Assembly (NCBI GenBank): GCA_019358935.1
Contig: JAHHIK010000016.1
Span: 1-64,000 of the forward strand
Direction: 5' to 3'
Source: Tolypothrix carrinoi HA7290-LM1
GTDB taxonomy: Bacteria > Cyanobacteriota > Cyanobacteriia > Cyanobacteriales > Nostocaceae
Length of the DNA stretch: 64,000 nucleotides
How positions within the stretch are numbered: position 1 is the stretch's first letter; each line of letters opens with the position of its first letter. The translations under genes were made by a program, and so were the position numbers. This document shows positions 1,206 through 11,316 of this stretch, piece after piece. The notes under the pieces were generated by a model. The model saw only the letters and a program-made list of their open reading frames with translations. It searched no databases and was not told where the DNA came from.

Positions 1206-1450
1206 AAATCACGCGCAACACAAGTGCGAATTATCCCTTCGTAAACCTCTCAGGACTAGACTGCTCTACTCAGCGGAGCCACCAAGCACCCCATAGTCAT
1301 TAGTTTCACGGAAACTAAACCGTAGTACGGGGGGTGGCTCCGCAAAGTAGAGAGCAGGCTAGTGATGCATGGTTAGACTAAGCGCAAGGACGACGAACCA
1401 TCGTCCGGTTTGCAAGGTTGTTTCGCGTAGCTTACAGATGCGCGTGAGTT
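1206..1450 (-). ncRNA. Retron msr-msd-like ncRNA, copy A (RT-proximal)
   Basis: Terminal IR tcacgcgca (1209-1217) / tgcgcgtga (1439-1447). Short msr-like hairpin ggacga..tcgtcc. Long msd-like hairpin 1256-1362 with stem gcggagccacc/ggtggctccgc. Lies upstream of the RT, with a paralog at 6005-6273. Confidence 0.8.
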
Positions 1451-1516
1451 GTATCCAGTTTATTCGCAGTTTGCCGATTTTGGGAAGATGTGGGGATAAA
1501 CTACGAGTTTGACAAA

Positions 1517-2326
1517 CTAAGATTGCAGGTATTTTAGCAAGGTTTCGGCGTAAAGTTTAGGATCGCGCAGATACATCAGGGGACTGCCGTGTAGAACTTT
1601 GGTGGTAGAATGCGGAACAAGTCGGGCAGTGTCCTCAATAAAAGGTGTAAACATGGTGTCTTGTATTGCCCACATTAGTAAAGTGGGAACACAGATAAGT
1701 GGTAAACGGCTTGCTTCATCGTACCTCAAGACTGCTTCTATCCCCTCGTAGGTGCGCTTTTGCCGAGACATCACTTCTTGAAAATAGATTTCAAAACATT
1801 CAGGGGGTTCATCAATACATAGTGATTTTATTCGTTGCCAATTAATGCTGTAGTGGCTGCCATCTTCTTTTACTTCTGGTGGTCCATAAAAGAATGGTAA
1901 TTGACGTAAATCTTGACGTGCTGCTTCGTCTTTCCAACGAGGCATTCCAAAAAGTACCAGTTTTTTAATTCTAGTTGAACAAATAACCGCCGCTTCGCAA
2001 GCAATTGCAGCTCCGGTGCTGTTGCCTACTAAGTAAAAATCTTCAACTTTCAGTGTGTCCAGTACCTCAAATAAATCTGTAGCATACTGTGGAATAGTCC
2101 ACTGAGTAGGTGGATTTTCTGACTCGCCTTGACCGGGAGTATCTAAGACAATTACCCGAAAATGAGGAGCTAATAGCGGCATAACTCTGATAAAACTACG
2201 AGAAGAAAAGTAAGTTTTATGGGTGAGTATTAGTGCTGGACCATTGCCTGCTGTCCGGTAATGCACTTGACCCCACGACCGATCCACAAAGCCTCTTTTA
2301 ATTTTGATTGCCTGTTGTTGAATCAT
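1517..2326 (-). CDS. Alpha/beta fold hydrolase
   Basis: LDTPGQGES and GNSTG nucleophile elbow, 269 aa. Confidence 0.9.
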   Translation of the reverse strand: MIQQQAIKIKRGFVDRSWGQVHYRTAGNGPALILTHKTYFSSRSFIRVMPLLAPHFRVIVLDTPGQGESENPPTQWTIPQYATDLFEVLDTLKVEDFYLVGNSTGAAIACEAAVICSTRIKKLVLFGMPRWKDEAARQDLRQLPFFYGPPEVKEDGSHYSINWQRIKSLCIDEPPECFEIYFQEVMSRQKRTYEGIEAVLRYDEASRLPLICVPTLLMWAIQDTMFTPFIEDTARLVPHSTTKVLHGSPLMYLRDPKLYAETLLKYLQS

Positions 2327-2774
2327 TTTCTATTGTGTACACAGCAGCCCTAAAATAATTATCCCGTGCAACAGACGTATTTTTGGATTTGGTGTTGTCA
2401 GCTGCGATCGCTAGGAGCGAGGGAAAAAATTTTACTGCCTTATTTTTCACACACTTATATAATTTTTATCCAGCAAAGATTAGAGAAGTTACTATCCCAT
2501 AACGGGCGGTGTGCAGTCGGCTGTTATCTCTAGTCTCAGCCATCTTATATTTACCTCCTAAATCTCTGGAATTCAAGCTTATACTTCTGTAGGTTTGTGT
2601 AGATACTATTTCTATAAAATCTGTTACTGACTATGCGTATCAGTATTCCAGATAACCTGAAGAAAAGGTTTCACGTAGCCTGTGCTATCCGTGGACTGAA
2701 AATGAGTCAAGTCATAACTGAGCTAATAGAACAATGGTTAACCAAGTTTTTTTATTTAGTGAGCCAAAATCCTA

Positions 2775-3734
2775 ATGAAGAAAATTTTGATTTTGTCAGC
2801 AAATCCTATTAATACAGGGAGACTGCGCTTGGATAAAGAAATGCGGGAAATTCAATTGGCATTAGAAAGGTCTAGAAGCTGTGAGGAGTTTGAACTAATC
2901 TCCAGAGGGGCAGTTCGTATTGATGACTTGCGTCGTGCATTACTGGATAACGAACCACAAGTTGTACATTTTTCCGGTCACGGGACTGGAACTAATGGCA
3001 TAGTGTTGGAGGATAGTTCTAGTGATGCCCAACTGGTTAGTACGGAATCATTAAGTAATCTATTTGATCTATTCAAAGCCAAAGTCGAGTGTGTTTTGCT
3101 CAATGCCTGTTACTCAGAAATACAAGCTGAAATAATCCATCGCTATATTGATTGTGTGATTGGTATGGAACACGCCGTCAGTCATATTGCTGCTATTAAT
3201 TTCTCTACAGCATTTTATGACGCTCTTGGTGCTGGAAGAAGTTATGCAGAAAGTTTTGAATTCGGTCGTAATAATATTGACCTGCATGGTATACCAGAGT
3301 CTTTTACCCCTAAAATCAAAGTTAGAAATAACTCTAAAACCTTATTCTCTAAGAAGGAACCAAAATCTAATATGACTGGGAACCGCAATATTCACATTGT
3401 TAGTGGCAATTACAACGAGCGTATTGAGGGTGATTATATTCAAGGGAATAACTACGAGAATGGCAGGCATCAAGACCTTGCTGACGCTGCTGCTGAAATT
3501 CAAAAGCTTCTAGAACAGTTAGACAAATCCTATCCTACTGATACAACTTTGGGCAAGATGCAAGTAGCAGCCGAAACTATTAAGGCTATTGAAAACAATC
3601 CTAAGAGGGCGCAACGGGTAACTAGTGCTTTAAAGGCTGGTAGTATTCAGGCTTTAGCGCAACTACTTAATCATCCTGCGGCTAGTTTTGTCATTGATGC
3701 ATTAGAAGATTGGCAGAAAACTAAGAGTAGTTAA
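2775..3734 (+). CDS. CHAT (caspase-like) domain protein with N/G-rich linker motif and C-terminal helical domain
   Basis: KKILILSANP start, HFSGHG (His) and LNACYS (Cys) catalytic dyad motifs. Confidence 0.9.
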   Translation: MKKILILSANPINTGRLRLDKEMREIQLALERSRSCEEFELISRGAVRIDDLRRALLDNEPQVVHFSGHGTGTNGIVLEDSSSDAQLVSTESLSNLFDLFKAKVECVLLNACYSEIQAEIIHRYIDCVIGMEHAVSHIAAINFSTAFYDALGAGRSYAESFEFGRNNIDLHGIPESFTPKIKVRNNSKTLFSKKEPKSNMTGNRNIHIVSGNYNERIEGDYIQGNNYENGRHQDLADAAAEIQKLLEQLDKSYPTDTTLGKMQVAAETIKAIENNPKRAQRVTSALKAGSIQALAQLLNHPAASFVIDALEDWQKTKSS

Positions 3735-3796
3735 ATCTTTTTTATAAGCAGGTATTAACTTTCTTTGATATCGAATATACTTACTCAAATTTAATC

Positions 3797-5809
3797 ATGA
3801 CAGAAAATCAGAAGCCAGAGAATCGCAATACCCACATCAATCAAGGCAATAACTTTGAGTCAGTTGGCAGAGATGTTGTTACTAATTATCATTTTCTAAA
3901 TAACCTACTTAACCGACGACATATTCACTTTATTCAGTTTTTAATTGTAGGTGTAGGTTTGGCTTTTATTTACTTAGGATTCGCAAAGTTATTAATAAAT
4001 GGTCATTTGAATAGTAAAGTTATAATCTCACTCGGTTCAGGTTGTTTAATACTTGCGCTTTTTTGTAGTTACTATGCTTTATTCTGGAACCCAAATAAAT
4101 TAAGTGTTAAAGTCTGGGTCTGGAGACGTTTGGCTGCTGTAGGTATAGTTGGAATTCCCTTTTTAACGGTCGTGGGAGTTGCTTTTTGGATGATCGATCC
4201 GACTAATACAATTGTCACTCTCGCTAAATATACTGTAAATGGAGAATACCCTAATCAACATTTAGAACAAAATGCATCAAATAGCGAGAGATTAAAACAA
4301 GATATTTATTTTTTAAGTAACAATAATCTTCATTTTTTAAAAAAAGAACAATTTGTAGAAAAACCAGATGTTCAAATTAAACAAATAGAAGAAGCCTTTA
4401 AAGATTCGCAAAGGGAACAAGCTAGGAACGAAGCTAAAAATTGGAGAGCAACTGTTGCAATCTGGGGAGATTACTCCACTTATTATAAAAACAAAGATGA
4501 GATATTCATCACTTCTAATATTGACTTATTGAAAGAACAATTACTTCTTTTTCTGCCAAATTATAAAAATAATAAAAAGGGTGAAATTGAAATACCTGAT
4601 ATTAAAGATGCAATCAGACCGTCTGAGCTAAATATAACAGTAACTCAAAATAAAAATGAGCCAGAAGATTTTTCCAAAATGCAAGCATACTATATCAATT
4701 TCATTGCTGGGCTAGCTGAGTACAAGTCTGGGTTAGCTCATTGCGTTCATAAAAAAGATAAAATACCTGAAGAAGCTAAAAAAAGCTTGGGTAAATCTCA
4801 ACAATACCTAAAAAAAGCAAACCGATACCTAGAAGAAGCAAATAAATGGCTAAACAAGATAGAAAATGAGTCTTCATTGAGTAACTTTCCAGACAAGCAA
4901 CAGCTTGTTGATTTTCTTAAGGGTGTCACTGAGTTTTCTAATGGCAATGCCAGTTTATATAATGAATATTGTTCCAAACAACCTAATTCCTATGATTTAG
5001 CAATCAACAGCTTTACCGAAGCAATTAAACATGTTCATAAGCAACTTGTTACCTTGGATGACAGGCAGAATTCTTATGTTCCTGAGTATCCTTACAAGCT
5101 TATTCCTGCCAGTTATAGGCAGAATTCTTATGTTCCTGAGTATCCTTACAAGCTTATTCCTGCCAGTTCTGACCCAGAAGAAATACTTGATTTAGATTTT
5201 AATGATAGTGATGACAACCAAAAAACTTGTGGTCACAAAAGGGATAAAAATATTAGGGTCAGTGATAACAACCGTTCTGACTCTAAAATTTTATTATCAA
5301 GAATTCACCATAATCGAGGAATTGCTTATCAGATGAAAGGAAATATTGAAAAGGCTTTAGAAGATTATGAGCAGGCAATTAAATACGATCCCAGAACATA
5401 TGCATTTTGTATGAGTATAAAAACTGCTTATGCTAATCTGAATAATTACAAATCTGCTATTAATGGCAGTCGCCTAAGTGTCAATGTTCCAAATGTTGAA
5501 GATAGTCTTGCCTATTACAATAAGGGTAATATTTATTTAAGGCAACGTGAATATAAGCAGGCTGTTGGAGAATATCTACAAGCAATTAGATTAGATTTAA
5601 ATTTTTATGAGGCTTACAACAATTTAAAAATAGCTGTCTCTGAGGCTTCTCAAAAATTATACTCCAGTTTTACACAAGCAGCGGGTAAAAGTTTTGAAAA
5701 GATGCTTGAAGACTTGCCTAATCTGTTGCCTAGATTGTTTAAGGGGTTAATTGAGGAAGTAATACCATCCCTTGTAAAGGCGCTAGCCATATATAGTAAT
5801 TTAAAATGA
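3797..5809 (+). CDS. Membrane-anchored tetratricopeptide repeat protein
   Basis: About 3 N-terminal hydrophobic helices and C-terminal TPRs (HHNRGIAY..ALEDYEQAIKYDP, AYYNKGNIY..EYLQAIRLD). AT-rich gene. Confidence 0.8.
   Translation: MTENQKPENRNTHINQGNNFESVGRDVVTNYHFLNNLLNRRHIHFIQFLIVGVGLAFIYLGFAKLLINGHLNSKVIISLGSGCLILALFCSYYALFWNPNKLSVKVWVWRRLAAVGIVGIPFLTVVGVAFWMIDPTNTIVTLAKYTVNGEYPNQHLEQNASNSERLKQDIYFLSNNNLHFLKKEQFVEKPDVQIKQIEEAFKDSQREQARNEAKNWRATVAIWGDYSTYYKNKDEIFITSNIDLLKEQLLLFLPNYKNNKKGEIEIPDIKDAIRPSELNITVTQNKNEPEDFSKMQAYYINFIAGLAEYKSGLAHCVHKKDKIPEEAKKSLGKSQQYLKKANRYLEEANKWLNKIENESSLSNFPDKQQLVDFLKGVTEFSNGNASLYNEYCSKQPNSYDLAINSFTEAIKHVHKQLVTLDDRQNSYVPEYPYKLIPASYRQNSYVPEYPYKLIPASSDPEEILDLDFNDSDDNQKTCGHKRDKNIRVSDNNRSDSKILLSRIHHNRGIAYQMKGNIEKALEDYEQAIKYDPRTYAFCMSIKTAYANLNNYKSAINGSRLSVNVPNVEDSLAYYNKGNIYLRQREYKQAVGEYLQAIRLDLNFYEAYNNLKIAVSEASQKLYSSFTQAAGKSFEKMLEDLPNLLPRLFKGLIEEVIPSLVKALAIYSNLK
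5063..5168 (+). repeat. In-frame 54-bp tandem duplication inside the TPR gene
   Basis: Identical 52-nt blocks starting at 5063 and 5117, encoding RQNSYVPEYPYKLIPAS twice. Confidence 0.95.
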
Positions 5810-6004
5810 AGCTACATAGAAAAGAGCTTCTAAAATGAAGTTATAGGCGTTACTAGCAAAGCTGTCACTCTCTACTATGTAATGACTAAGCAGGGTAGTT
5901 TCATACAAGTAGAGAAAAATTTTTCTCAAGCTGGTTTGATAAAATACGTTATGTGTAGGCGCGAATTTTATTCGCCAGCCTAATTAGTGCAAGATAAATA
6001 TAAA

Positions 6005-6273
6005 AAATCACGCGCTATTTTTTGTTGGTTTCCCTTCGTAAATCCCTCTGGACTAGACTACTCAACTCAAGCTAGGCTCGGTACTACCGGACTCATTCAC
6101 TTCGTAGAAGTCAAACCGGAATGTCCGGTAGTACCGAATGCCTAGCACAGTCAAGAGTAGGCTAGTGATGTATGATTAGGCTAAACGCAAGGACGGCGAT
6201 GCCTGCGGCAACTGCTGACGCAGAACGCACCGCCCAAATTGCAAGGTTTCAACTCAACAAATGCGCGTGATTT
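6005..6273 (-). ncRNA. Retron msr-msd-like ncRNA, copy B (begins at the SWIM gene stop codon)
   Basis: Perfect 11-bp terminal IR aaatcacgcgc (6005-6015) / gcgcgtgattt (6263-6273). Long hairpin 6053-6165 with perfect 15-bp stem tcggtactaccggac/gtccggtagtaccga. Scaffold motifs shared with copy A. Confidence 0.8.
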
Positions 6274-7909
6274 ATCTACACTGACGAGCGTGTTGCATTC
6301 GCAGTGCCAGAATGTGTTCGCAAGGACCTTTATACAGCTTGTTTTGCTGATGCCAGTTGCAAGTACATTCTGCGTCGATTATACGCTCATCTCTATCAAT
6401 CGTCAAAGATAAATTTAAAGTTTTATCTTTGTCGTTAACGCTACCTTGCAAAATCAACGCGCCATTGTCACTTACTGAAGTCACGCGCACTGCATTTTGA
6501 CTCAAAAACCGAGTTGCGCTTTCTTCTCGTGCGTTGGCGAAGCGCAAACGCTCGATTGGTAGCGGTTCGCGGCTGAGTTCTCGCACGCGATAAACTTGTT
6601 TATTTAAGTCGTAAATTGCACGTCCGGCTTGCGTGTAAGCACTTAAAGCACCCAACACCGCCGTGCGACTTAAATTTAAGCGTTCTGCAAGGCGATCGGG
6701 ACTTTCTAACCAATTTTCCCGCAGCGCGTCAAAAATCAGCTTTTGCGTCCATTCGTCAACGTCAGCGCGGGGTGCCATTAAATCAAAATTACCAGATTGC
6801 GCCCAATCGTTTGCCGTCCATCCAGATAAACCGAGGGTAAAGGACATATCGCCCAAATCAGCGACGTAGAATGAAGGCATACCCGTACCCAACAGATGAA
6901 CGGTGAACTTTTTGGCAACCGGGATGAGACGTTCTAAAATGTTCAGCCGGCGACGTCCCCAAACGCGAATTGTTTGGGGTTGAATTCCGGTGTAAGGCGA
7001 TCGCGCACAAACTACTTCAATATTCCACGGTTCAAATACCACCCGCACGGGTTCACCTGGGTTCAGATGATAGCGCATACTGCGCGGTCCGGTTGTCTCT
7101 TTATGGCGACGCAAGACAAAACAGATATTGTGGATATCCATCGGGTGTAAATCGAACTGCGTCGCGGGTAAAGACATCGCCGAACTAACTTGTAAAAAGC
7201 CTCTTACCCAACTATCAGGTAAATCGATTTTGACTTCTTTATAAGCTTCTTCGTTTGTAGTTTGAACTTCAAACCCAGAAGGATCAACTTGTAATTGAGT
7301 ACTCTTATAACTGCGGATTTTCTGAAACTCATCGTACAGCGCTGCCGAGTAATCAACATTCGTTGTACCGCAAGCGAATTCATTAATATTTTTAAAGACT
7401 TCGTAACTTGCACTCAAGCGTCCATAACTCGATTCATCTACGCTAAAGCACTCAAAAAATACTTCATCCGGATGAACTGTGATTACTGGATCGAAGACAA
7501 AATAAAAGTCTAATTGCTTTTGCCAAACATAACGCCTAAATTTGTCTCTAGCTTTATAATAAGGAGCAAAGCGTTCATAACTGCGCTTGCTTAACTGATT
7601 TAATTCTTCTTGTAGTGGTTTAATTTTGGCAGCGACATCTTGACGCATAGCTGCAACTAATTGCCAATCAATTTCATCTTGCTTCGCACGCCATTCTTTG
7701 TAAGCAGTTTTGTCTTTTGGTTGAAAACGCATATCAGAGACAACCACATCATGTAAAGCGCTAATCGCTTCACGAAAAGCGACATTTTGCCGCAATTCTC
7801 CGACAAAGTAAGTCGGTGGACGTTTCGTATCTGGAGAAAATGACATTTGAGTGTTTCCACCGCTTTCGCTAACAGCGGTACTTTGTTTATAAGCGTAGTT
7901 AAATTCCAT
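6272..7909 (-). CDS. SWIM zinc-finger protein (retron-associated)
   Basis: C-terminal CTC-x-GPCEHILA SWIM motif and DPVITVHPD/WVRGFLQV conserved blocks. Lies between the WGR gene and the RT. Confidence 0.88.
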   Translation of the reverse strand: MEFNYAYKQSTAVSESGGNTQMSFSPDTKRPPTYFVGELRQNVAFREAISALHDVVVSDMRFQPKDKTAYKEWRAKQDEIDWQLVAAMRQDVAAKIKPLQEELNQLSKRSYERFAPYYKARDKFRRYVWQKQLDFYFVFDPVITVHPDEVFFECFSVDESSYGRLSASYEVFKNINEFACGTTNVDYSAALYDEFQKIRSYKSTQLQVDPSGFEVQTTNEEAYKEVKIDLPDSWVRGFLQVSSAMSLPATQFDLHPMDIHNICFVLRRHKETTGPRSMRYHLNPGEPVRVVFEPWNIEVVCARSPYTGIQPQTIRVWGRRRLNILERLIPVAKKFTVHLLGTGMPSFYVADLGDMSFTLGLSGWTANDWAQSGNFDLMAPRADVDEWTQKLIFDALRENWLESPDRLAERLNLSRTAVLGALSAYTQAGRAIYDLNKQVYRVRELSREPLPIERLRFANAREESATRFLSQNAVRVTSVSDNGALILQGSVNDKDKTLNLSLTIDRDERIIDAECTCNWHQQNKLYKGPCEHILALRMQHARQCR

Positions 7910-8133: not shown

Positions 8134-11100
8134 TTAAATTCTAACTTCAGCAACAGGCTTTACATCAATCGGCAACGAAAACTGAGGATAAATTTTATTA
8201 ATTTTTAACATAATTTGTATCGCCTTTGCTTTATCTCCAATTGCCATAGTTACCGATTGTCTCGTCATAATCTCAGCAACAACTTTAGCGGCTTCTTCGC
8301 TTTTTTGTGCTTCAGCATCCAGAAAAGCAAAAATTCGCTTTTTCGCAACACGTCCGCAATTGACGCGGCATAATACACTTATAAAATAAGGCATCAACTC
8401 CCGCAAACGTTCTGGATTATCTACAGCATACTCTTGCAAATAGTTAGTTGCAAATAACTGCATATCTGCTGATGGATGTTCGCTGAATTTCAAGAGATAT
8501 TCTTGTCCATCTGCTTGTTGAAAATTGCGAGTTAATAAATCACGTCCAAGTTTACGCGCATCTTCACGCACACTATCACAAATGCTTACCAAAATTTTCG
8601 GGGTGAATTCTTCTGAACCAAATTCTGTAGTAAATATCCTCAAAGCAAATTCTCGCGAATCTTGCCATTTTGACTCTAGCATCCGCACCGCTGATAACAT
8701 TTCTTCGGAATCTAAACGCAAGCGATTTAATATTTGTAAAAACATCTGCCGTGCAGCTTCTCGCACTGATAAAATTTCGTGATTGGCAAGTTTGACAATT
8801 TCGCTAGCGGCAAATTCTGTTATCCAAGCGTTGCTATTTGCACCCAGCACTACACCACCTAATTCTTGTGCAGGTGAAGACTTTGCTGCAAGTAAATTTA
8901 AAGCGATTTCTTTAGTAACGCTTGTCATCCATCCCTGCAAATCTTCCCGCAACAAACGTACTAAATAACTGTGAACACCTTCATGTTTTTCGGGAGTTAG
9001 CAGCACTTCGGTAAAATCAAATGCTAAATCGATGCTGAAAGCTGGATAAGCGGCTCCTAAACGGTGGATAATAGGTTTAATCGCATTGCGAATTTCTGCA
9101 TTTGCATTCACTGCCATTGCGACAATTAAAATGCTTTCCTCACCTATGAGTTTCTCATCAGGTAATTGTCCAAAAAGCCTAATACCGAAAACTTGCAATA
9201 ATTCGTAAGGTGATGCCAATAATGATTCAATTATGTGGGATGGCAAGTTTTCGGCACTAATTTCGTGATTTAATAAAATCTGATCGGCTAATTCTTGAGT
9301 TTCCACTAGCGGATGTGTCAACAAATCATTGATGACACTTAAACCTAAGTTACGCAATTGAGGTGCAAAACTGAAGAGTAAAGTTTCACCAATTTCTTTT
9401 GCCATCTCCCCTTGGTTTGAGGATAATGTTAATAATTCGGCAATGATGCGTCCAATTAATACTTTTGCTGTGGTATCTGTGAGAATAGTAGAACTTAAAA
9501 GTCTCCGGGCAAAGGTGCGAGTGTCAGTCTGTTGACTGGTGACTAAAGCAGCGATCGCATTACTATCTTGCAAAAAGTATTCGCGTTTTTCATCTATCCA
9601 GTGGTAAGCTTGAATACGAGCGCGTTCATACACGCAATTGGCTAAGGCAAGAACTAATTCAATGTTGGGTGAGGTGGAATTGTAGTTAAGCAGCGCTAGT
9701 TCAAATGCAAATTGCGCTGTAACTTCATAAGGTTGATTAACAAGTTTGATGATTGTAGGTATATTTACATAAGCACAGAACTCAGGATTCGCTCGTAAGA
9801 CTTTGACTGCAAAATGATGAACGCGATCGCACTCACTCTGCAATAATAAATCTAAAAGCGCATCTGGGTTTTGCTCCCAAAGTTGCCCAAAGGCTTCTTC
9901 TCTAACTGCCGGTTCTGCATCTCCCGGTTTATAACCTTCCCGACACTGCCACGCTTGAGAATTGCGTTTCAACTCATAGCGGGGACTGTTTTCGTAAAGT
10001 ATATGGTTAAATGTCAAATATCCAGCAAAATCATCCCAATTGCGTCGAAACTCAGTGCGTCTCCTAATAGACGGGTTCCAGCGATAGAAAACTGACTCTC
10101 TTACTTCTTCAGCATCTTCATCAGAATATTGAAGAAGAACACCTACAGCCATTTTAACATAGTCAGGGTCACTTTCTTCGCCTAATTGTTTGAGAGTACG
10201 CCACACCCGACGTAGCAAATATTCACGAGTATTGCTGCTGTAAGCGATTCTTGACTGAGGATGTTTTAGTTCGGCTTCAACTTCACTACCTTTAGATTCA
10301 TAACGCCCTGTTTGGCGATTATAATTACCCCATAAAGTCTTTCTTAAATGTCCCCCGCTTGGCAGACTAACATAATAAGATTTGCTAAAGAAACCCGCTT
10401 TCTCTATCTCTAACCTATAAGCAAGAATACCAAACACTTCAGCATCGTGGCGATATTCCGCCATTTTGAAAATATGGCGAAGTTGTTTAAAATAGTTTGG
10501 TTTGAAAGGTGCGGTGCATAAAATATCAAGTAGTGCAGGACGAACGTATTGATTATCAATTTGATAAATCGTGTCTAAGACGGCAAAATGCTTGTAGTTA
10601 CCGTGTTCTAGATAGTTAGATAAAGCTGTTGCAAACTCCTCTGACGAACCATTTCGCGTTAAATTTTGTAACTCAGGTGGTAAAAATTCAATTAATTCAG
10701 CTTGCAAAGAAGCTGTCTTTTCGGCATCAGATAGTTTTAAGAGTGCTTCAAAAGCGATGCGGCGAACAAATTCGGGATTTGAGAGATTATTATAAAGGTG
10801 AGTGACGGGAGCGATCGCACTATCATCCCCACACCAACCCAAAGCCCAAGCAATGCAATAATCTCTTAGTGGTTCACCAGTACCAATAAGTTTGATTAGT
10901 AAAGGTGTCGCTTCACTAATTTTAAGTTCTCCGGCTCGCCAAATTGCCCTTTCTAACTTTGATTTACTCGGTTTGTCGTCAGCAAGGCGATTGAGAATTG
11001 CTTGTTTGCGTGGATCGTCGCTAGACTCAACTGGCGATGGTGTCGATTCTAAATTAACTGGTTGAGCGTTAACATCACGATATCCCTTTTTGGTCTTTTC

Positions 11101-11316
11101 GCCAACCAGCTTGTCGAAGACTTGTTGCGCTTCTGTTAAAGGTACGGAAGAAGTAGTTTTGGTACCTTCTTTTAGATTAGTGCCCCGCCGTCCGTAACGG
11201 AAGTTAACTACATAACGATCTTCACCAGTCTGACAAAGATCCACTTCGTAGATTTTATCAGAAGTTCCTTCTTGATAGTGCAGTGTAGTCTGTTTAATTA
11301 ATTTCATCGCACCCAT
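8134..11316 (-). CDS. WGR-domain protein with long ARM/HEAT-like helical region (retron-associated)
   Basis: N-terminal SDKIYEV..VNFRYGRRG..EKTKKGY WGR signature, then about 950 aa of helical repeats. Confidence 0.88.
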   Translation of the reverse strand: MGAMKLIKQTTLHYQEGTSDKIYEVDLCQTGEDRYVVNFRYGRRGTNLKEGTKTTSSVPLTEAQQVFDKLVGEKTKKGYRDVNAQPVNLESTPSPVESSDDPRKQAILNRLADDKPSKSKLERAIWRAGELKISEATPLLIKLIGTGEPLRDYCIAWALGWCGDDSAIAPVTHLYNNLSNPEFVRRIAFEALLKLSDAEKTASLQAELIEFLPPELQNLTRNGSSEEFATALSNYLEHGNYKHFAVLDTIYQIDNQYVRPALLDILCTAPFKPNYFKQLRHIFKMAEYRHDAEVFGILAYRLEIEKAGFFSKSYYVSLPSGGHLRKTLWGNYNRQTGRYESKGSEVEAELKHPQSRIAYSSNTREYLLRRVWRTLKQLGEESDPDYVKMAVGVLLQYSDEDAEEVRESVFYRWNPSIRRRTEFRRNWDDFAGYLTFNHILYENSPRYELKRNSQAWQCREGYKPGDAEPAVREEAFGQLWEQNPDALLDLLLQSECDRVHHFAVKVLRANPEFCAYVNIPTIIKLVNQPYEVTAQFAFELALLNYNSTSPNIELVLALANCVYERARIQAYHWIDEKREYFLQDSNAIAALVTSQQTDTRTFARRLLSSTILTDTTAKVLIGRIIAELLTLSSNQGEMAKEIGETLLFSFAPQLRNLGLSVINDLLTHPLVETQELADQILLNHEISAENLPSHIIESLLASPYELLQVFGIRLFGQLPDEKLIGEESILIVAMAVNANAEIRNAIKPIIHRLGAAYPAFSIDLAFDFTEVLLTPEKHEGVHSYLVRLLREDLQGWMTSVTKEIALNLLAAKSSPAQELGGVVLGANSNAWITEFAASEIVKLANHEILSVREAARQMFLQILNRLRLDSEEMLSAVRMLESKWQDSREFALRIFTTEFGSEEFTPKILVSICDSVREDARKLGRDLLTRNFQQADGQEYLLKFSEHPSADMQLFATNYLQEYAVDNPERLRELMPYFISVLCRVNCGRVAKKRIFAFLDAEAQKSEEAAKVVAEIMTRQSVTMAIGDKAKAIQIMLKINKIYPQFSLPIDVKPVAEVRI

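Follow-up and report, generated by a model that had tools for sequence, protein, structure and literature searches.

Retrons are defined, and searched for, as a reverse transcriptase (RT) gene together with one contiguous non-coding RNA (ncRNA). One of the groups described is type XIII, whose members (RT clade 10) include, in the available text of the classification, Retron-Mxa1 (Mx162), Mxa2 (Mx65), Sau1 (Sa163) and Nex2 (Ne144) (PMC7736814). Putative cyanobacterial RTs have already been placed in this group, as far as the available portions of the two sources go (PMC7736814, PMC6868368). Here we describe a type XIII locus of the cyanobacterium Tolypothrix carrinoi HA7290-LM1 (GCA_019358935.1, approximately 8 Mb), found at the start of the window, by which we mean the whole stretch of 64,000 nucleotides analysed, the first 64 kb of contig C16 (JAHHIK010000016.1). 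GCGATCGC sites, a hallmark of cyanobacteria, agree with this origin. The locus possesses two ncRNA genes, copy A and copy B, and the genome a single RT gene of the type, now split by a mobile element; this RT may well have accepted both RNAs.

In its gene set the locus is like the type XIII retrons in the available part of PMC7736814, with an N-terminally extended RT, a protein combining SWIM and winged-helix domains and one combining WGR with HEAT/ARM repeats, all matched by PADLOC models of the type; its structured ncRNA has a1/a2 repeats, an msr hairpin and a long msd hairpin. Unlike the retrons described there, the locus contains two ncRNA genes, the conserved one of which travels with the SWIM gene and not with the RT, and in several relatives of this locus the RT is far away. 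In Myxococcus xanthus, Mx162 and Mx65 are both of type XIII (Table 1 in the part of PMC7736814 available). As is predicted here, one cell there contains two different templates of one retron type for multicopy single-stranded DNA (msDNA), the branched product that retrons generally make by priming from the 2′-OH of a conserved G. We take each of the M. xanthus templates to have its own RT, in contrast to the single RT gene of the type in the present genome.

Engineered retron editors, as presented in the available text of one preprint, have their msr-msd RNA and RT supplied separately (bioRxiv 10.1101/2024.07.21.604473); they resemble the present case in that a retron RT acts (here, would act) on an ncRNA not in cis, and differ from it in that the separation found here is natural and conserved between genera. 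The retron match to “two ncRNAs” in the literature, in the same available text, is a single guide RNA plus an msr-msd, and hence irrelevant. Literature searches, the scope of which did not extend to the supplements of PMC7736814 that may list ncRNA positions, gave no relevant description of a retron with two ncRNAs. We regard the layout with two templates as a variant of a known retron type; no description of it was found in the literature searched.

Two msr-msd genes and a split RT gene

The RT gene gives a PADLOC RT_XIII match of 8.3e-112, versus ≤1.6e-40 for the other retron RT models. Upstream of it on the same (minus) strand are full-length genes for a SWIM zinc-finger protein (6272-7909; PADLOC SWIM_XIII 1.9e-240 over residues 1-541, Pfam SWIM at residues 507-536) and for a WGR protein with HEAT/ARM repeats (8134-11316; PADLOC WGR_XIII with an E-value of 0 and the HEAT-ARM_XIII models, Pfam WGR and HEAT_2). 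Pfam agrees with PADLOC (RVT_1, SWIM, WGR and HEAT_2), and we therefore assign the locus to the type XIII retrons of Mestre et al. 2020 (PMC7736814, available part): a clade 10 RT, a winged-helix and C-terminal SWIM protein (cluster 114) and a preceding WGR-like plus HEAT/ARM protein (cluster 216) are all present. The locus is thus an already classified type XIII retron. An earlier note on this DNA, made from the sequence alone, had arrived at a retron, a reading that is supported here; it had not recognised the classified type XIII system. The single ncRNA contiguous with its RT that generally characterizes retrons is not what is found, there being two ncRNA genes here and a split between RT and ncRNA in seven relatives.

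Copy A occupies 1203-1450 on the minus strand (nhmmer profile E-value 3e-55; also recognised by its fold, alignment and covariation) and copy B 6002-6274 on the same strand (nhmmer 6e-63, and its folds), starting at the SWIM stop codon. The two are 4.55 kb apart, B after SWIM and A before the RT; the end of copy A is 196 nt, and that of copy B 4995 nt, from the RT start. Read 5′ to 3′, copy A consists of a1 (1447-1440), an msr hairpin (approximately 1417-1383), an msd hairpin (1363-1255), a2 (1216-1209) and a T-run (1208-1203), and copy B of the same elements at 6270-6263, approximately 6245-6187, 6166-6052, 6015-6008 and 6007-6002. As the earlier note had claimed, these are paralogs in the same orientation; they align over their full length with 77% identity in the aligned columns and with their common blocks collinear. 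The a1/a2-like terminal inverted repeats that it had pointed out are TCACGCGC (1209-1216 and 6008-6015) and GCGCGTGA (1440-1447 and 6263-6270).

Likewise present are the long CTAG-closed hairpins, measuring 109 nt in copy A (1255-1363) and 115 nt in copy B (6052-6166) where 107-113 nt had been given. Their inner stems are unrelated (34% identity) while the scaffold is 69% identical, and pairing is kept in both, so that this central observation of the note holds as well. The hairpins of both copies are near-perfect, and each copy retains all of the invariant scaffold positions. Compared with shuffled sequences, whole copies A and B fold with z-scores of -7.5 and -8.7 on the plus strand and -6.9 and -8.6 on the minus strand, and the msd hairpins alone with -8.4 and -9.5. 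The msd hairpins of all copies in the collection range from -40 to -66 kcal/mol (z -4.9 to -10), except for the enlarged one at locus L047. The difference in msr hairpin length that had also been noted is due to a 26-nt insertion in copy B (6200-6227), without counterpart in the 25 other aligned copies, including the B copy of congener G025, and also missing from the RNA-library contig discussed below.

Base pairing was assessed in a structural alignment of 26 copies from 21 loci, oriented on the SWIM/RT strand. RNAalifold predicts 58 pairs, 36 of them with compensatory changes on both sides, and in a pair count 94.7% of the cells are paired versus 33-40% for slid partners; 181 cells have changed on both sides, versus 19-45. 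None of 500 shuffles reached any of the observed pairing measures, and covariation extends to all eight a1/a2 pairs and all ten pairs of the inner msd stem, an outcome in favour of the two RNAs in the fold-and-align check that the note had proposed. Conserved G-U pairs occur, for instance, at alignment positions 39-96, 53-85, 131-269 and 132-268. The RNA is read on the minus strand, because the opposite strand would turn these pairs into A-C mismatches, because the T-run follows a2, and because this is the strand of the RT and SWIM genes; this corrects the description in the note.

By eye, a further helix is seen within a1/a2, GUUGG/CCAAC in B-type copies, GCGAA/UUCGC in copy A and AGCGAGU/ACUUGCU in the RT-proximal copy L045_A; it was left out of the pair count because the MAFFT alignment is inconsistent there. 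Rfam has no family matching at gathering threshold or at E ≤ 10, other than two chance microRNA matches. The a1/a2 pairing, the msr hairpin and the msd hairpin are backed by covariation within this alignment. Copies A and B are genuine msr-msd paralogs, in which the scaffold is conserved and the pairing supported by covariation.

The RT gene of this genome is broken. On the minus strand, 123-1007 represents only the first 295 of approximately 470 codons, and the RT_XIII match (8e-112) covers profile positions 7-263 of 469. The in-frame stop at 120-122 was created by the insertion of a multicopy IS982-like element, the inverted-repeat end of which lies beyond it; this element occupies 1-122 up to the contig end and begins with the terminal inverted repeat TAACCCAAGTTGC. 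The remaining 175 codons are located at the start of contig C65 (approximately 125-650), behind the matching inverted end, and the two halves are contiguous in the loci of 12 relatives. YADD is read in the C65 half, and the RT halves also contain NAxxH and VTG motifs, which we take to be retron hallmarks. The 122 nt from the start of C16 recur at approximately 15 other contig ends, and the 126 nt from the start of C65 at approximately 13 more; the element with TAACCCAAGTTGC ends breaks the assembly at some 30 contig ends. An end that is 85% similar is found in congener G025 as part of a 1.1-kb element, which has inverted ends of 26 nt and two open reading frames (ORFs) matching IS982-family transposase (NCBIfam); Pfam gave nothing in these ORFs, and the interior of the element is not in the present assembly, whose smallest contig is 10 kb. 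There is no other RT of this type in the genome, the remaining RVT_1 matches being of other kinds. Since the RT is split, the locus probably makes no msDNA now, and the retron system of this genome is probably inactive. The note's “one RT” is correct as to a single gene of the type, and that gene is interrupted here.

Distribution and history of the ncRNA and RT genes

Copy numbers rest on the nhmmer profile, on BLAST and on a 35-nt motif taken from the 3′ region of the RNA. No third copy came up in BLASTN against the complete genome, and the motif search likewise found only A and B. The SWIM gene was found in 24 of the 151 family genomes sampled; the motif occurs in 25, namely these 24 and one with a chance-like match having two mismatches, while the reversed motif, as a control, gave 11 matches. 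All 24 system-bearing family genomes possess copy B, and five also have an A-like second copy; in each of the five the two copies are at one locus: this genome (G000) and G025, of one genus, and G037 and G095, of another, have a copy behind SWIM and another in front of the RT, and G080 has one upstream of WGR and one after SWIM. A 401-genome sample of the phylum gave credible motif matches in seven genomes outside the family. One of these, G392 of another family, contains the sixth two-copy locus, in which 1.3 kb separates two copies that lie downstream of SWIM amid small ORFs and a Phd/ParE-like pair, and the RT is on another contig; the two scaffolds are nearly identical and the msd stems unrelated. 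Every credible match in the 151 and 401 genomes is in a genome with type XIII genes and, wherever the locus was retrieved, beside SWIM. Two-copy loci, from which the note had derived its multi-ncRNA retron, thus recur among relatives.

Relative to the end of the SWIM stop codon, the SWIM-proximal copy begins at -4 to +14 nt in 21 of the 24 loci, and further away at L044 (+49), L047 (+85) and L055 (+334). In compact loci the RT begins 19-23 nt after this ncRNA, which is the classical msr-msd-RT order. The ncRNA-RT gap seems to be a hotspot for insertions. At the G045 locus (L030) an RNase III gene is found directly upstream of the RT, with an HNH gene nearby, between the ncRNA and the RT (L030:7435-8112 and 6857-7147); toxin-antitoxin modules and genes for peptidoglycan-binding, Tudor-like or SDR proteins occupy the same gap at other loci.

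In at least seven relatives the RT is intact and has no ncRNA close by, and the genome contains just one. In two near-complete assemblies the RT is 1.56 Mb (G072) and 1.42 Mb (G073) from SWIM and the ncRNA, and in G116, G145, G058, G125 and G086 it is on a separate contig. For the stand-alone RTs (L048-L054 and L060) nhmmer found no ncRNA within approximately 3-4 kb, and the genomes concerned have one copy each. In G072 and G073, members of different genera, the RT has the same neighbours, namely a gene with a rubrerythrin domain and housekeeping genes, from which it follows that the separation is old and stable. For G177 and G399, which are not of this family, the corresponding distances are 3.4 Mb and 0.67 Mb. 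With the RT this distant from the sole ncRNA, it would have to act in trans if these systems work, and it probably does so; this makes one RT with two templates plausible. In G078 the RT is located upstream of WGR. G027 (L041; assembly 99% complete) contains WGR, SWIM and the ncRNA, and has no RT match at E ≤ 1e-30.

The ncRNA tree was built from the scaffold columns, omitting alignment columns 55-80 and 140-258. Copy A and its G025 counterpart (L028_A) group with the ncRNA of L047, the second system of G095 (support 98/96), and copy B groups with the B copies of G025 (L028) and G150 (L029), the other congener (97/99). In the RT tree (first 295 residues, 22 rows, fragments below 250 amino acids omitted, short search) the RTs of the genus group with that of L047 (SH-aLRT 94); in the SWIM tree (22 rows, broken genes omitted) the SWIM proteins of the genus group with L030 (99) and L047 stands apart. 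Copy A thus goes with the RT and copy B with SWIM, which fits the exchange or addition of an ncRNA-RT module, with moderate support on the RT side. These groupings indicate that A and B are not a simple local duplication: A is an extra, RT-linked copy of another ncRNA lineage and B the conserved, SWIM-linked gene. An msd allele of an old “A class” common to copy A, the L047 ncRNA and the second ncRNA of G392 was considered; only one arm (TGGCTCC..CTGAGT) is involved, the identities are weak (61.6% and 57.9%, versus 56.0% to copy B), and it was not relied on.

The order in G025 is B, hydrolase, A and intact RT, relative to which the present locus has gained a CHAT/TPR block (2379-5948), a palindromic element (1072-1202) and the insertion sequence. 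In G150, B is followed by two dispersed repeats, a remnant of A limited to roughly its last 25 nt (a2 and the T-run), the shared leader and an intact RT. From these layouts the pair was present in the ancestor of the genus and A was lost once. At the lost copy A of G150 (L029:5930-6119) a dispersed repeat of approximately 57 nt (GAGTCCGCG..GGACTTTGT..GCCGCGACTTCCAGTCGCTAGGG), abundant in the genome of the window, occurs twice.

The msd stems have a history of their own. Two RT-proximal copies, L045_A (L045:8269-8522) and L046_A (L046:6627-6880), from G095 and G037, have scaffolds that are 93.5% identical and inner stems with 26% identity, both stems being fully paired; L045_A and the B copy of L040, by contrast, share 74% of the stem and 58.7% of the scaffold. 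From these contrasts we conclude that stems are replaced as units with pairing kept, in extra and conserved copies alike, which suggests that msd stems (alignment columns 140-258) are exchanged as cassettes.

Possible templates for a single RT

We propose, with a probability of roughly 0.6, that this is a composite type XIII retron, the single RT of which most likely accepts both RNAs. Copy B would be the ancestral RNA gene of the effector genes, starting at the SWIM stop codon and ending in a2 and a T-run. Copy A would be a second complete RNA gene, from another ncRNA lineage, forming the 5′ leader of the RT transcription unit and having a promoter-like motif of its own, and unrelated cargo genes would have been inserted between the two. 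Since both scaffolds and hairpins have been kept, and since the RT in relatives is left with a distant ncRNA, one RT most likely accepts both, and in strains with an intact RT such as G025 two msDNAs with different stems would be made; in the present strain the IS982-like element would have ended this by splitting the RT. We infer that both copies are transcribed and that both are reverse transcribed where the RT is intact; a role in defence is presumed.

The promoter-like motif, TTCCCA and TAAACT separated by 18 nt (1454-1491, minus strand, located by a regular-expression search), lies directly 5′ of copy A and occurs once in this genome. It is found 5′ of copy A in all four loci with an RT-proximal copy (G000, G025, G095 and G037), and directly 5′ of the RT start in seven of eight loci with a stand-alone RT. 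As a promoter it would place the transcript start approximately at a1. A generic promoter scan with a cut-off of 9 left the motif unscored, at 8 of 12 positions. The promoter-like site TTGACG, 17 nt, TATAAT (11 of 12 positions) is found inside SWIM (6378-6406, minus strand), approximately 100 nt upstream of copy B.

One plant-associated metatranscriptome contains 5% of the sampled words of the region; its contigs are 90-97% alike, so they come from a relative. An A-type copy is covered at 1203-1282 and 1331-1406 (depth 10.8), with 88 other letters replacing the intervening 48, and a B-type copy is joined to the 3′ end of SWIM in a contig corresponding to 6018-6631 (depth 66.6). No conclusion follows from the absence of coverage at 900-1136 (part of the RT) and 1407-5949. 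A contig end at 1203 abuts adapter-like letters and is no evidence of an RNA end, because an adapter-tailed end also occurs inside SWIM at 7024.

Several findings weigh against a single RT using both templates. The RT of this genome is split; a single ncRNA is all that 19 of the 24 system-bearing family genomes have; and copy A is dispensable, being nearly lost in G150 while B and an intact RT remain. The grouping of the RT with that of L047, on which part of the history rests, is only moderately supported (94, in a short search). Both kinds of copy are present in the RNA library of the relative, for which carried-over DNA is possible, so that transcription is unproven, and in this sequence-level analysis neither msDNA nor defined transcript ends were seen.

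The alternative that survives best, though we think it unlikely, is that only the SWIM-side copy B is a working template and that copy A is an intact-looking leftover of recombination or duplication, heading for loss. The presence of B in all system-bearing family genomes, as against A-like second copies in five, speaks for this, as do the fate of A in G150 and the seven genomes in which the RT follows the same promoter-like motif with no ncRNA. But copy A has all invariant positions, paired a1/a2 repeats and a perfect msd hairpin, an A-type copy is covered by contigs of the RNA library, and the RT-proximal copies of G037 and G095 have swapped a whole inner stem with pairing kept, which is unexpected for a dead gene.

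The converse, in which the RT uses copy A in cis as its template and B is not reverse transcribed, serving instead as a structured 3′ end or terminator of the effector operon or as an RNA partner of SWIM/WGR, strikes us as quite improbable. It would account for B starting at the SWIM stop codon and ending in a stem and T-run in most relatives, and for the RNA-library contig that joins B to the SWIM 3′ end; yet B is the only ncRNA in 19 genomes, the RT follows it by 19-23 nt in compact loci, and the two copies have their msr and msd elements in common.

That both elements are a generic dispersed repeat or miniature transposable element unrelated to the retron, as their terminal inverted repeats and hairpins and the real dispersed repeats nearby (1072-1202) might suggest, is effectively refuted by the occurrence of only two copies in 8 Mb, by credible matches that all fall in type XIII genomes, by an exact co-occurrence with the SWIM gene across the 151 genomes, from which it follows that the RNA is not a dispersed repeat, and by the strand-specific G-U pairs and strong covariation; matches unlinked to retron genes, which the note had named as the sign of such a repeat, were not what the search returned. 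The template and variable repeats of a diversity-generating retroelement were also rejected: both copies are non-coding, they differ by whole-stem replacements and indels and not in an adenine-specific manner, and the RT matches retron models.

Returning to the composite retron with a single RT, we offer, tentatively and with more doubt than conviction, one joint reading of these data. The type XIII retrons of the order might be natural split, multi-template systems in which the template gene is tied to SWIM/WGR and one RT, often megabases away, serves one or two templates with a common recognition scaffold. Their msd stems might be exchanged as cassettes between lineages under selection for novelty, with pairing kept, and two templates might amount to two msDNA “keys” for one effector set, widening what is sensed or resisted.

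Measured against the definition of one RT with one contiguous ncRNA, these loci of one retron type depart in three ways: the ncRNA can remain beside the effector genes when the RT moves off, a second and different template can persist, and the msd stem turns over as a unit on a fixed scaffold. If it is true that one RT makes two msDNAs, this would be natural multiplexing, bearing on the identity of msDNA in defence and of practical interest for retron editing. In this group, templates will be overlooked or wrongly assigned by any survey in which the ncRNA is sought solely 5′ of the RT.

Inserted elements and neighbouring genes

Between the two ncRNAs lies an alpha/beta-hydrolase gene (1517-2326, minus strand; Pfam Abhydrolase_1 at 2e-21, no PADLOC match), which is cargo and is held in common only with congener G025. 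The genome-specific insertion at 2379-5948 is on the strand opposite to the retron (plus) and is missing from G025 and G150 in the synteny comparison. It encodes an RHH protein (2633-2812; Pfam), a CHAT protease-like protein (2775-3734; Pfam and the PADLOC chat model) and a TPR protein (3797-5809; Pfam), all on the plus strand; the gene for the last contains an exact tandem duplication of approximately 57 nt near 5064-5170.

The palindromic element between copy A and the RT leader (1072-1202), recognised from synteny breakpoints, genome matches and its fold, is composed of dispersed short repeats. The element measures 131 bp, consists of GACGCAAA repeats with 22-nt inverted arms, and folds at -61 kcal/mol. 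It is not present in G025, and has approximately 74 partial matches throughout the genome.

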